From positions 3,257 through 67,256 of the forward strand of contig MNWR01000015.1 in the NCBI GenBank assembly GCA_001872725.1: a stretch of DNA of 64,000 nt. The letters are read 5' to 3'. A program made the position numbers and the translations under genes. This DNA is from Proteobacteria bacterium CG1_02_64_396 (GTDB lineage: Bacteria; Pseudomonadota; MNWR01; CG1-02-64-396). This document shows, piece by piece, positions 24,044-35,549 of the stretch. Numbering within the stretch: position 1 is the stretch's first letter; each line of letters opens with the position of its first letter. Below the pieces are notes generated by a model. It searched no databases. It was not told where the DNA came from and saw only the letters and a program-made list of their open reading frames with translations.

Positions 24044-24310
24044 TCACCCTTTCTCAAACCCCAACTCCCCCCCATCCACAATCACCCGAACGGTGTCGCC
24101 ATCGCGGAAGCTGCCCTCCAGCAACGCAATGGCCAGGGGGTTTTGGATCGCCTGTTGGATCAAACGCTTCAAAGGTCGGGCGCCGAAGGCGGAATCAAAA
24201 CCGTGTTCGGCCAGCCATCCCACCGCCTCGTCGCTCAATTCGAGGGTGATCTTGCGATCGAGCAAAATCTTGCGTAGCCGGGCCAGCTGAATCTCGACGA
24301 TTTTGGCCAT
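24044..24310 (-). pseudogene. clpB: Truncated 3' fragment of clpB (C-terminal 88 codons), duplicated from the intact gene at 35261.
   Basis: Translation [88 protein letters not shown] matches the ClpB C-terminus at 35261..35527 with one amino-acid difference. Confidence 0.8.
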
Positions 24311-24332
24311 ATGGCCCCGCGCCAGCCGGTGG
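24044..24332. repeat. Left copy of a ~289-bp direct repeat (island boundary, attL-like).
   Basis: Near-identical to 35261..35549, with about 5 mismatches. It begins exactly at the clpB stop codon. Confidence 0.8.
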
Positions 24333-24730
24333 GCTCAACGGGACGACCTTTTCCCCGTAGCGGCCCCACCCCACCCTCCACCGTCGCCCCCGCGCCCGCT
24401 GGATCCCCGCCTGCGCGGGGATGACGCCGGGATGGGCGGGGGATGGGGGGCTTCGGGTCAGGCTTGGCACATGGGGATGCGAAAGCCCCAACCGGGCCGG
24501 GAGTTGGAGGCACAGCCCGAAGCCACCCAACAACGGCACTCTTTTCCAGGAGTCTGCCGGTCTTTCGTTGTCGTGGGGTAGAAGGAATAACGACAGCCCT
24601 TTCGCTGATGAGGGGCAAGAAAGACAACCTCTCGCTGAGGGATAGGATTCAGGTAGACGCATTCGGGTCGACAGGTACCCTTCTCCCCTTCGGTAAGCCC
24701 TACCCCATTTTGGCTGAGGTCTCCTGCGGA

Positions 24731-27700
24731 ATGGATCCGTTCTTCGAGCAACCCATCCTCAACTCCCCCTACGAGTCTCCCTCCCGGCATTGGGAGTTGG
24801 ATGAGCACGGCCAACCAACCCAGCGGACCATTGAGCAACGGCGGAGTGCAGAATTCGTCACCCCCATTCCCAAACCCAAAAAGCGCAAAGGGGGGGAGGG
24901 AAATTACCTGGCGTTGGATGAAGGATTTGGGCTGTCCACCCAGGACCAGCGTTACGAACACACCGGTTTGATCAACGCCCTGCGTGAAGAGGTGGCGCAG
25001 TGGCGGCAATTGCCCCCGGCCCACTGGCGAGTGACCCCCGAAACAGCCCGATTGCTCCAGCATTGGCGACACCACCCGTTTGGGGGTGTGCGCCCATTCT
25101 TTTGCCAGGTAGAGGCGGCGGAAACCGCCATTTGGCTGACCGAAGTTGCCCCCCAAAGTGGAAAAACCGGGGAACGGTTTTTGCGCCATCTGGAAGAGTC
25201 CAGCCAAGCAGCCAATCCCGATTTACTGCGTTTGGCCCTCAAGCTGGCCACCGGTGCAGGCAAAACCACCGTGATGGCCATGCTCATCGCTTGGCAAACC
25301 CTCAATGCCGTCCGACGCCCCAACAGCCGCAAATTCACCCGTGGGTTTTTGATCGTTACCCCCGGCATCACCATCAAGGACCGCCTGCGCGTCCTTCAGC
25401 CCAACGACCCGGACAGCTACTACAAGAGCCGCGAGCTGGTGCCCGGCGACATGATGGGCGACCTGGAACGGGCCAAGATCGTCATCACCAACTATCACGC
25501 CTTCAAACTGCGCGAACGTATGCCCCTGTCCAAGGGCGGTAGGCTGCTGCTGCAAGGCCGTGGCGGCGAAGCACTCGATACGTTGGAATCCGAAGGCCAG
25601 ATGATCCAGAGGGTCATGCCGGAGTTGATGGGCATGAAGAACATCCTGGTCATCAACGACGAGGCTCATCACTGCTACCGGGAGAAACCCAACCACGACG
25701 ACGAAAAGCTGAAAGGGGACGAGAAAAGGGAGGCGGAAGAAAACAACGAAGCAGCCCGTCTGTGGATTTCCGGTTTGGAGGCCGTCAACCGCAAGCTGGG
25801 CCTTAGCCGGGTGATCGACCTATCCGCCACCCCCTTCTTTCTGCGTGGTTCCGGTTATGCCGAGGGCACCCTGTTCCCCTGGACCCTCAGCGATTTCTCG
25901 CTGATGGACGCCATCGAATGCGGCATCGTCAAACTGCCGCGTGTGCCGGTGGCCGACAACATCCCCGGCGCCGAAGTGCCGGTGTTCCGCAACCTGTGGG
26001 AACACATCCGCAAAGACATGCCCAAGAAGGGGCGCGGCAAGGCCGAAGGACTCGACCCGCTTAAGTTGCCGACCCGCCTGCAAACCGCCCTCGAAGCCCT
26101 CTACGGCCATTACAAGAAAACCTACGATTTGTGGGAGCAGGCTGGAATCCAAGTGCCGCCCTGCTTCATCGTGGTTTGCAACAACACCTCGACCTCCAAG
26201 CTGGTGTACGACTACATCTCTGGCTTCCAGCGGCTAAACGACGATGGCAGCAGCAAGCTGGAGAACGGTCGGCTCCCACTGTTCCGCAACTTTGATGAAC
26301 ACGGCAATCCACTCGGCCGCCCCAAAACCCTGCTCATCGACAGCGAACAACTGGAATCCGGCGAGGCTTTGGATAACAGCTTCCGGGGCATAGCCGCTGA
26401 CGAAATCGAGCGCTTCCGCCGCGAGATCATCGAACGCACCGGCGACCCGCGTGCGGCCGACACCATCACCGACGCGGCCTTGCTGCGCGAGGTCATGAAC
26501 ACCGTCGGCAAGGCTGGCCGACTGGGCGACTCCATTCGCTGCGTGGTTTCGGTCTCCATGCTGACCGAAGGCTGGGACGCCAGCACCGTCACCCACGTCC
26601 TGGGCGTGCGCGCCTTCGGCACCCAGTTGCTGTGCGAACAGGTCATTGGCCGCGCCTTGCGCCGCCAGTCTTACGAACTCAACGAGGCAGGGCTGTTCAA
26701 CGTCGAATACGCCGACGTTCTCGGCATTCCCTTCGACTTCACCGCCAAACCGGTGGTCGCGCCGCCGCAACCGCCGCGCGAAACCATCCAGGTCAGGGCC
26801 ATCCGTCCCGACCGCGACGCTCTTGAAATCCGCTTCCCCCGCGTCCAGGGCTACCGGGTGGAACTCCCGGAAGAACGCCTCACCGCCGGGTTCAACGCCG
26901 ACTCCGTGCTGGAACTGACCCCCGATCTGGTTGGCCCCTCCATCACCCGCAACGCTGGCATCATCGGCCAGGATGTGGACCTGAACCTGGTCCACACCGG
27001 CGACATGCGCCATTCCACGCTGCTGTTTCACCTCACCCAGCGCCTGATCTACACCCGGTGGCGCGACCCCGGCGAGGAACCCAAGCTCTACCTGTTCGGC
27101 CAACTCAAACGCATCGCCAAACAATGGCTGGACACCTGTTTGGTTTGCAAAGGCGGCACCTACCCGGCCCAGCTCATGTATCAGGCCCTGGCCGACGTGG
27201 CTTGCGAACGCATCACCGCTGGCATCACCCGAGCGCTGATTGGTGAGCGCCCCATCAAAGCCGTGCTTGATCCGTACAACCCCACCGGCACCACCGCCCA
27301 CGTTAACTTCAGCACTGCGAAGAAAGACCGCTGGCAGACCGACGCCCGCCGCTGCCACCTCAACTGGGTCATTCTCGATAGCGGTTGGGAAGGCGAGTTT
27401 TGCCGCGTCGCCGAAGCCCATCCGCAGGTACGCGCCTATGTGAAGAACCACAACCTGGGGCTGGAGGTGCCGTACCGCTATGGCTCCGAAATGCGCACCT
27501 ACCTGCCCGACTTCGTCGTTCTTGTAGACGACGGCCATGGCGAGGATGACCTGCTGCACCTTGTGGTCGAGGTCAAAGGCTACCGGCGCGAAGACGCCAA
27601 GGAGAAGAAAGCCACGATGGAAACCTACTGGGTGCCGGGGGTGAACAACCTCAAGCAATACGGCCGCTGGGCCTTCGCCGAGTTCACCGAGGTCTGGCAG

Positions 27701-27775
27701 ATGCAGGACGACTTCGCCGCGAAGGTGGAGGCCGAATTCAGCAAGATGATCGGGCGGGTGGTGGATGGAAGCTGA
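24731..27775 (+). CDS. res: Type III restriction endonuclease Res subunit (SF2 DEAH helicase plus C-terminal PD-(D/E)xK nuclease). Start is uncertain; alternatives are 24443 and 24608.
   Basis: Motif I TGAGKTTVMA. Motif II ILVINDEAHHC. Motif VI QVIGRALRR. C-terminal nuclease motif PDFVVLVDD...LHLVVEVKG. Confidence 0.8.
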   Translation: MDPFFEQPILNSPYESPSRHWELDEHGQPTQRTIEQRRSAEFVTPIPKPKKRKGGEGNYLALDEGFGLSTQDQRYEHTGLINALREEVAQWRQLPPAHWRVTPETARLLQHWRHHPFGGVRPFFCQVEAAETAIWLTEVAPQSGKTGERFLRHLEESSQAANPDLLRLALKLATGAGKTTVMAMLIAWQTLNAVRRPNSRKFTRGFLIVTPGITIKDRLRVLQPNDPDSYYKSRELVPGDMMGDLERAKIVITNYHAFKLRERMPLSKGGRLLLQGRGGEALDTLESEGQMIQRVMPELMGMKNILVINDEAHHCYREKPNHDDEKLKGDEKREAEENNEAARLWISGLEAVNRKLGLSRVIDLSATPFFLRGSGYAEGTLFPWTLSDFSLMDAIECGIVKLPRVPVADNIPGAEVPVFRNLWEHIRKDMPKKGRGKAEGLDPLKLPTRLQTALEALYGHYKKTYDLWEQAGIQVPPCFIVVCNNTSTSKLVYDYISGFQRLNDDGSSKLENGRLPLFRNFDEHGNPLGRPKTLLIDSEQLESGEALDNSFRGIAADEIERFRREIIERTGDPRAADTITDAALLREVMNTVGKAGRLGDSIRCVVSVSMLTEGWDASTVTHVLGVRAFGTQLLCEQVIGRALRRQSYELNEAGLFNVEYADVLGIPFDFTAKPVVAPPQPPRETIQVRAIRPDRDALEIRFPRVQGYRVELPEERLTAGFNADSVLELTPDLVGPSITRNAGIIGQDVDLNLVHTGDMRHSTLLFHLTQRLIYTRWRDPGEEPKLYLFGQLKRIAKQWLDTCLVCKGGTYPAQLMYQALADVACERITAGITRALIGERPIKAVLDPYNPTGTTAHVNFSTAKKDRWQTDARRCHLNWVILDSGWEGEFCRVAEAHPQVRAYVKNHNLGLEVPYRYGSEMRTYLPDFVVLVDDGHGEDDLLHLVVEVKGYRREDAKEKKATMETYWVPGVNNLKQYGRWAFAEFTEVWQMQDDFAAKVEAEFSKMIGRVVDGS

Positions 27776-35147: not shown

Positions 35148-35209
35148 TTTTCGGCGGTCTGCGTTGTAACCAACACATGGCGCGGTCGAGTGCCCTTTTT
35201 TGCAACAGG

Positions 35210-35254
35210 CAAACGAAGAGCCATGACCGACTTTGGTCAGTGGCTCTTCGTTTG
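35210..35254. other. Strong hairpin (14-bp stem CAAACGAAGAGCCA/TGGCTCTTCGTTTG with a palindromic loop) between the helicase gene and the clpB stop.
   Basis: Seen directly in the sequence. There is no clean U-tract on either strand. Could act as a clpB or island terminator. Confidence 0.3.
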
Positions 35255-35260
35255 CTCCCC

Positions 35261-35549
35261 TCACCCCTTCTCAAACCCCAACTCCCCCCCATCCACAATC
35301 ACCCGGACGGTGTCGCCATCGCGGAAGCTGCCCTCCAGCAACGCAATGGCCAGGGGGTTTTGGATCGCCTGCTGGATCAAACGCTTCAAAGGTCGGGCGC
35401 CGAAGGCGGAATCAAAACCGTGTTCGGCCAGCCATCCCACCGCCTCGTCGTTCAATTCGAGGGTGATCTTGCGATCGAGCAAAATCTTGCGTAGCCGGGC
35501 CAGCTGAATCTCGACGATTTTGGCCATATGGCCCCGCGCCAGACGGTGG
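35261..35549. repeat. Right copy of the ~289-bp direct repeat (inside the clpB 3' end).
   Basis: See the left copy at 24044..24332. Confidence 0.8.

Follow-up and report, generated by a model that had tools for sequence, protein, structure and literature searches.

A restriction-modification and helicase cassette between duplicated clpB 3′ ends, probably exchanged by host homologous recombination in a groundwater population

How does a defence-gene island that encodes no integrase come to be present at the 3′ end of clpB in some members of a bacterial population and absent in others? The question is raised by a 64,000-nt stretch of the genome of Proteobacteria bacterium CG1_02_64_396 (GenBank assembly GCA_001872725.1, contig MNWR01000015.1, positions 3,257–67,256; this whole stretch is referred to as the window), in which five genes, among them those of a predicted restriction-modification (R-M) system, stand between two copies of the clpB terminus. 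From the contigs compared here, the probable cause of the variation is homologous recombination by the host, for which a long target duplication around an R-M/helicase defence cassette supplies the homology.

A repeat search of the window returned a single long pair, a direct repeat of 289 nt at 24044–24332 and 35261–35549, whose copies are 98% identical and begin at an interval of 11,217 nt. Translation identifies the repeat as clpB coding sequence along its whole length. The two copies differ at five single-nucleotide polymorphisms (SNPs), at repeat positions 7, 99, 178, 244 and 283 in clpB sense, which are numbered SNP1 to SNP5. Four of the five are synonymous third-position changes, SNP2 being an Asn/Ser exchange, and SNP1 and SNP5 each lie 7 nt from the repeat edges. 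An earlier reading of the locus made without database searches (the sequence-only reading) had described a 289-bp repeat beginning at the clpB stop codon with about five mismatches, and had taken its left copy for an 88-codon clpB fragment; alignment of the copies and the Pfam match of the fragment agree exactly with this description. The features of the target site are as follows.

23494–23967, minus strand: ferritin-like gene, the immediate neighbour of the clpB 3′ end where the island is absent

24044–24332, minus strand: left repeat copy (L), a 289-nt fragment of the clpB 3′ end, with SNP alleles G, G, A, T, A (clpB sense)

24044–24310, minus strand: 88-codon open reading frame (ORF) in the L copy, with a Pfam match to ClpB_D2-small only

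35261–35549, minus strand: right repeat copy (R), comprising the 96 terminal codons of intact clpB from its stop codon, with SNP alleles T, A, G, C, G

35261–37828, minus strand: clpB, the intact target gene, encoding 855 aa with all ClpB Pfam domains

Between the repeats lie 10,928 bp (24333–35260), with clpB on one side of the unit and the ferritin-like gene, a SpoU gene and priA on the other. The absence of recombinase genes, also claimed by the sequence-only reading, is directly observed: Pfam, NCBIfam and PADLOC scans of the five genes of the island, and of ORFs covering its non-coding ends, detected no integrase, transposase, resolvase or recombinase domain. Even at E ≤ 1 the ORFs of the left end (398 bp) and of the right end (113 bp) had no Pfam match, and they gave no recombinase remnant. 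The repeat search of the window found no terminal inverted repeats pairing the island ends, ARAGORN found no tRNA or tmRNA gene in the window, and the Rfam scan matched no Rfam family.

Two metagenome-assembled genomes from Crystal Geyser groundwater, Alphaproteobacteria bacterium CG_4_10_14_0_2_um_filter_63_37 and Proteobacteria bacterium CG1_02_64_396, contain proteins identical to the ClpB, the ferritin and the 88-aa fragment, and many groundwater metagenome contigs encode these exact proteins as well. The population is near-clonal, its contigs being 99.8–100% identical to the window. The order clpB, island, clpB fragment and ferritin is found on a single 73-kb MEGAHIT contig (L001/L006), and both island junctions recur in other samples, in independent JGI, MEGAHIT k141 and SPAdes assemblies. 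Since both junctions recur across samples and assemblers, and the whole order stands on the 73-kb contig, the duplication is not an artefact of the window assembly, an outcome which the sequence-only reading had named as one that would undo it. A search for the exact 78-nt repeat core in the JGI metagenome_contigs collection gave 0 matches, although JGI contigs retrieved through their proteins do have this core; the collection evidently lacks these samples, and the negative carries no weight.

The empty site that had been predicted, with clpB followed directly by the ferritin-like gene, is observed in the same near-clonal population on three independent island-free contigs, namely L002/L008 (49.9 kb), L007/L116 (36.8 kb) and L014 (7.3 kb). 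A spacer of 76 nt separates clpB from the ferritin-like gene in L002/L008 and L014, and the SpoU methylase gene and priA come next; in L007/L116 a 69-bp tandem duplication brings this spacer to 145 nt. Each of these contigs carries one repeat copy. The L copy of the window is separated from the ferritin start by 76 nt, just as the clpB stop codon is in the 76-nt empty sites. What varies is therefore a unit of 11,217 bp made up of the island and a single repeat copy, with nothing further. Apart from the island, the flanks of the empty-site contigs are nearly identical to those of the window, and those of L002/L008 show no SNPs, the only difference being a 12-nt indel. The long empty-site contigs can be considered safe because they bear linked markers of their own, that is, the 12-nt indel at 38664–38676, SNPs in clpB and, in L007, the 69-bp duplication.

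Some of these markers are observations in their own right. The 69-bp tandem duplication (L007 positions 9816–9953, corresponding to window 24015–24083) consists of the last 40 nt of clpB and 29 nt of the spacer, and is bounded by an 11-nt microhomology, ACCGTTCGGGT, present both in clpB and in the spacer, with SNP4 lying inside the 11-mer. This variant probably explains the breaks of k141 contigs at window positions ~24150 and ~24021. The 12-nt indel is in frame within a PAS/GGDEF/EAL gene next to clpB (1064 versus 1060 aa) and sets L002 and L007 apart from the window, L001 and L014, independently of the presence of the island; as it does not track the island, haplotypes have been reshuffled within the population. 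Within clpB itself, 13 polymorphic sites are found in the ~570 bp of 36872–37442 (L001, L007 and L014), whereas the flanks have hardly any over tens of kb, and the eight of L001 leave the ClpB protein unchanged. The cluster points to the import of recombination tracts into clpB, or else to cross-assembly with another ClpB, the region being a conserved one.

The five SNPs allow the origin of each part of a repeat copy to be followed through the different forms of the locus. No single sample or assembler supplied these forms, which were drawn from MEGAHIT k127, MEGAHIT k141, SPAdes and JGI assemblies, and SNP phases and junctions were taken from assembled contigs, not from reads. Mosaic patterns are directly observed in these contigs. 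The occupied contigs examined have the R copy TAGCG and the L copy GGATA, with the exception of the R copy of L117. The empty sites combine the two, as TA/ATA in L002/L008 and T/GATA in L007/L116 and L014, where the stroke marks the switch of allele. Two further contigs have the island ends joined to each other. In L110 (JGI 3300004265, 2059 bp) window positions 25024–24333, one repeat and positions 35260–34183 follow one another, with alleles G/AGCG, and in L104 (ERZ27293380, MEGAHIT k141, 1084 bp) the left island end, one repeat and the right island end are joined with alleles GGAT/G. The patterns T/GATA and G/AGCG are exact reciprocals. Every contig with a non-parental pair of flanks shows a single allele switch of the expected polarity, and the switch points of the assembled contigs fall into three intervals, SNP1–2, SNP2–3 and SNP4–5. 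Lastly, the occupied contig L117 (SPAdes, 57.7 kb) has two differences in 22,568 bases compared with the window: its R copy reads TGACG, with the L-type allele at both SNP2 and SNP3, and this two-SNP change is taken as a putative conversion patch.

On these alleles, at least three exchange intervals would be required under either ancestral state. Switches in three intervals together with the patch in L117 argue for homologous recombination or gene conversion over the 289 bp and not for a recombinase with a fixed core, which lends support to the suggestion of the sequence-only reading that the island may be mobilised by homologous exchange. A fourth crossover interval was considered from contigs L011–L013, which start at window 24154–24149, just after SNP3, and was rejected, since their start is accounted for by a k = 141 branch 30 nt after the clpB stop, where the normal and the 69-bp-duplication alleles part (319 − 141 + 1 = 179).

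In the favoured account, host homologous recombination between the two repeat copies, presumably by a RecA-type enzyme, would shift the locus among four states: integrated; empty with one hybrid repeat; island ends joined through one hybrid repeat; and carrying gene-converted repeats. The junction contigs L104 and L110 would then represent real molecules, and they fit an excised circle as well as a tandem array that arose by unequal exchange. A circle, or an ends-in linear fragment, with homology to clpB could re-integrate into an empty clpB in the manner of Campbell. The insertion lies directly after the clpB stop codon and is bracketed by the duplicated 3′ end, so that clpB is left intact.

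Several points weigh against this account. The junction contigs L104 and L110 are short (1–2 kb) and form its weakest link, and they could be chimeras arising from low-k bubble merging in iterative de Bruijn assembly or from PCR template switching. SNP1 and SNP5 are so close to the repeat edges that any assembly ties them to the flanks. The pattern T/GATA may be an ancestral allele and not a recombinant, and SNP2 may be an ordinary Asn/Ser polymorphism, in either of which cases the number of independent crossover intervals would be lower. The conversion patch could equally stem from allelic recombination with an empty-site strain. The searches returned no donor lineage, and the contigs therefore do not establish integration, rather than deletion, as the direction of change. 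It should also be noted that other copies of the cassette family have no long flanking repeats, so the cassette does not generally create them.

The alleles next to the island bear on where the second repeat copy came from. Those of the island-proximal sides (G at SNP1 of L, and G, C and G at SNPs 3–5 of R) are found in no empty site. This part of the evidence fits the sequence-only reading of an element that carried a replacement clpB end, whether as a circle or as an ends-in fragment from a slightly diverged relative; an old duplication diverging in place, with the empty sites as later deletions, is equally compatible with it. The predominance of synonymous changes leans weakly towards divergence between two functional alleles. 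As a means of deciding between import and divergence in place this bias was rejected as too weak, a rough and model-dependent binomial estimate giving P ~ 0.02–0.11. In a search for an outgroup or donor ClpB, the best match among GTDB representative genomes was 65% identical, and a search of 5.8 billion proteins returned the population's own cluster followed by a match of 68%. With the next ClpB only 65–68% identical, the searches yielded no outgroup close enough to polarise the SNPs and no donor.

The island itself contains five genes, all in the same orientation, between two non-coding ends.

24333–24730, plus strand: non-coding left end, upstream of res; not conserved in related cassettes, and its ORFs have no Pfam match

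24731–27775, plus strand: res, 1014 aa from the ATG at 24731, with a ResIII helicase domain (PF04851) and a C-terminal endonuclease domain (PF19778)

27899–28747, plus strand: Bro-N domain protein (PF02498), 282 aa, between res and mod; PADLOC defence candidate PDC-S13 (PDLC04920, E = 1e-125)

28750–31605, plus strand: mod, Type III-class N6/N4 DNA methyltransferase, 951 aa (PF01555)

31819–33006, plus strand: AAA_16-type P-loop ATPase, 395 aa (PF13191, PF13401), in a variable slot between mod and the helicase gene

33015–35147, plus strand: UvrD/Rep-like superfamily-1 helicase, 710 aa (PF00580, PF13361), the last gene of the cassette and conserved

35148–35260, no strand: non-coding right end, from the helicase stop codon to the clpB stop codon

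The Res protein belongs to the BPTD_3080 family of restriction endonucleases (NCBIfam NF046055, 1376 bits with a cut-off of 800), its matches to REase_III models being weak, and Mod matches the MTase_III model PDLC03632 end to end (1618 bits). Mod is thus encoded together with a Res that has both helicase motifs and an endonuclease domain, and the pair is predicted to form a Type III R-M system. Related cassettes fail to align in the central part of mod (~29583–30125), into which the patch of lowest GC in the window extends; this part is the putative target-recognition domain. The sequence-only reading had assigned nothing other than R-M and NTPase/helicase genes to the island. Such genes are indeed present, and PADLOC and Pfam add to them the Bro-N/PDC-S13 gene, whose Bro-N domain is frequent in phages and is not a recombinase domain. 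The AAA_16 ATPase matched no defence-system model above noise. The helicase matches the NERD+UvrD, DRT-associated helicase and GajB models, each in part. Its N-terminal extension (33015–33700) corresponds to a region for which many homologues are annotated by JGI as 'mRNA-degrading endonuclease RelE', and one homologue has a HigB-like toxin match in Pfam; in the helicase of the window no toxin domain was detected with Pfam at E ≤ 0.001.

Scans of the island ends for promoters and terminators gave nothing above shuffled sequences. The left non-coding end contains a palindromic 21-mer, CCCCGCCTGCGCGGGGATGAC, at 24405–24425, which is unique in the window (0.01 expected by chance) and not conserved in related cassettes, and which we presume to resemble CRISPR type I-E-like or REP palindromes.

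In composition the island departs little from its surroundings. The genome had been put at 65% GC in the sequence-only reading; the window measures 63.1%, the island 60.5% and the flanks 63.6–63.9%, with a GC3 of 0.72–0.78 in the island and 0.77–0.80 in host genes. The AT-rich segment reported there does exist as a ~300-bp patch of ~50% GC at ~29500–29850, the lowest of the window; it lies within the variable part of mod, and the atypicality of the island as a whole is weak. The idea that the island is compositionally strongly foreign was accordingly rejected (60.5% against 63.7% GC in the flanks, with similar GC3). Elsewhere in the window, a family of short interspersed repeats of 40–64 nt occurs in both orientations at 2061–2185, 5675–5833, 41130–41259, 41950–42051 and 54848–55039, including a perfect 32-nt inverted pair at 41228–41259 and 41950–41981 (690 nt apart). 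These look like REP or MITE elements and have no relation to the island ends.

Homologues of the helicase number in the thousands, the best 120 listed being 73–91% identical, and genomic contexts were retrieved for six of them (L106, L107, L108, L111, L113 and L114). In five of the six the same backbone was found, consisting of res, an optional gene X, mod, one to three genes Y and the helicase gene. In the remaining one, L113, mod is split and res is lacking from the stretch at hand, and the cassette looks decayed. The three relatives that were aligned, L106–L108, are 77–92% identical in nucleotide sequence to the window over 24740–35120. The X slot between res and mod is occupied by a Bro-N gene, a Fic gene, a gene for a DUF4062/HATPase protein, or by nothing, and the Y slot between mod and the helicase gene by the AAA_16 ATPase gene, by AAA_13 and RhuM, by DuOB and DUF488, by a reverse transcriptase gene, or by genes of unknown type. 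We know of no description of this res-X-mod-Y-helicase architecture as a unit. The related cassettes stand at unrelated loci, and no flanking direct repeats of ≥30 nt were found around those of L106, L111, L113 and L114 (the left flank of L111 being cut off). As relatives with visible flanks are without long repeats, the long duplication is a property of this insertion and not of the cassette family. Carriage of the island by a phage or plasmid was rejected as an explanation: no phage matched the cassette, and on plasmids only partial matches of ~74–82% to the res and mod genes were found, on a few of them.

For R-M units, a class of 'insertion with long target duplication' has been defined (Furuta, Abe and Kobayashi, 2010; NAR, PMC2853133), for which that paper cites Nobusato et al. 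(2000) as the earlier source. The class is characterized by the presence of R and M genes, an insert of <20 kb, a repeat of >30 bp that is single copy in the empty genome, and no mobility genes; the cases cover Types I to IV, and a start or stop codon frequently falls within the repeat, which spares the target gene. At the clpB locus res and mod are carried on an insert of 10,928 bp, the 289-nt repeat is single in the empty sites and mobility genes are absent, and the island is a further case of this already described kind of insertion. As in the described class, the R and M genes are accompanied by a few passenger genes, the repeats go far beyond transposon target duplications, and the stop codon is spanned so that the target survives. 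Compared with cases from Table 2 of that paper, the clpB repeat is much longer (289 bp versus 46–47 bp) and its copies are less alike, differing at five sites where those cases are 44/46 to 47/47 identical; because of these five differences the crossover points are readable at clpB. The cargo adds an ATPase and a UvrD-like helicase to what those cases carry, and whereas they were found by comparing two genomes, here occupied, empty, end-joined and converted forms come from one natural population.

The same paper proposed for R-M units a 'virus-like life cycle', in which a unit inserts with direct repeats, is amplified through them and is then released; its authors stated that there was direct evidence for amplification and, at that time, no experimental evidence for the release step. 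Contigs L104 and L110 have the structure expected of the product of tandem amplification, or of release of a circle, by recombination between repeats, with the limit that the evidence at clpB consists of assembled contigs alone, in which a circle and a tandem array are indistinguishable. The island could, tentatively, go further and be a self-sufficient mobile unit without a recombinase, for which the 289 bp act as portable homology: RecA would excise it as a circle, and after transfer the circle would enter an empty clpB again by Campbell-type integration. This cycle may be stimulated by the helicase of the island, or by double-strand breaks that its restriction enzyme introduces. If this were true, the Crystal Geyser contigs would be the first record of the R-M 'release' step in a natural population.

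At the other extreme, the island may have been inserted once, long ago, and be static. The empty strains would then represent an older lineage, and the mosaics and junctions would be due to allelic recombination between strains, to bubble-merging or to PCR chimeras. The short length of the junction contigs (1–2 kb), the several contigs that break in or beside the repeat (L011–L013, L015 and L109) and the other recombination mosaics in clpB, with 13 polymorphic sites in 36872–37442, all agree with such a history. It is nevertheless unlikely. At a final k of 127–141 all k-mers of the repeat span at least two SNPs, so that chimeric paths would need recombinant k-mers, and two different pipelines each gave an end-to-end junction with a clean single switch. 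The flanks of L002 are identical to those of the occupied strain and not diverged as an old lineage predicts, and L117 differs from the window by the two-SNP patch alone.

The commonest target of site-specifically integrated islands is a tRNA or tmRNA gene, although such a target is not obligatory. A decayed or satellite element of this kind, in which a tyrosine or serine recombinase, encoded elsewhere or since lost, inserted a circle with a 289-bp clpB end as attP and left the repeats as attL and attR, would also yield direct repeats of the target 3′ end and an exact empty site. The patterns TGATA, GAGCG, TAGCG and GGATA fit one exchange between attB and attP in the interval SNP1–SNP2, and the related cassette in L114 adjoins two Phage_integrase genes. 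Integrase-bearing defence islands flanked by repeats are, moreover, common (PMC12595487), and the intY islands of Pseudomonas described there resemble the clpB island in being small, in holding defence genes that include R-M genes, and in having direct repeats of the target 3′ end and a precise empty site. The intY islands stand at tRNA/tmRNA genes, in contrast to the clpB island, which has no integrase, a protein-coding target, a much longer repeat and crossovers that are not fixed. An integrative origin is judged quite improbable: no recombinase domain is encoded in or beside the island and the empty site places the ends of the unit exactly at the repeats; a recombinase with a fixed core would not give the switches TA/ATA and GGAT/G or the conversion patch; and 289 bp of identity is long for an att site. 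In sum, the locus has no recombinase gene, no fixed core and no tRNA/tmRNA target.

A further alternative concerns the origin only. A slippage event could have duplicated the clpB end in tandem first, the cassette then landing between the copies, in line with the 'chance insertion between repeated sequences' considered by Furuta et al. Tandem duplications do arise here, as is shown by the 69-bp duplication over the clpB stop codon in L007/L116 with its 11-nt microhomology. The chance of this sequence of events is likewise put low, since no strain was found with the 289-bp tandem duplication minus the island, none of the empty sites has the island-proximal alleles, which are better explained by import with the island, and the duplication would have to start 289 nt before the stop codon and end exactly at it. 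A composite transposon or insertion sequence can be dismissed, as there are no terminal inverted repeats and no transposase domain, and the duplication is 289 bp long.

In core defence hotspots, many alternative cargos are swapped through homology of the flanking genes, with no duplication of the target. The clpB site resembles the core defence hotspots of Pseudomonas aeruginosa (PMC10250203) in that defence cargo lies between core genes without mobility genes and homologous exchange is presumed. Unlike at those hotspots, one cargo is either present or absent at clpB, and the duplicated target permits excision by a single crossover. That clpB is a defence hotspot, as proposed in the sequence-only reading, was not demonstrated, no other cargo having been seen at the site.

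Defence islands are often found without mobility genes, and their gain and loss is usually inferred from the comparison of distant genomes. In the present case occupied, empty, end-joined and gene-converted forms of one locus seem to coexist in a single near-clonal environmental population, and five SNP markers locate the strand exchange. The practical value is modest, since mechanisms of this class are known from earlier work and direct repeats can be expected to recombine. A possible fusion of a RelE-like domain to a UvrD helicase is of structural interest, and clpB, with its stop codon spared, joins the list of targets. If reads confirm the junctions, loss together with either amplification or release would be documented. 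The locus would then show directly, from a natural population, that with a long target duplication host homologous recombination alone is enough for an R-M/defence cassette to be lost, and possibly to be amplified or regained.

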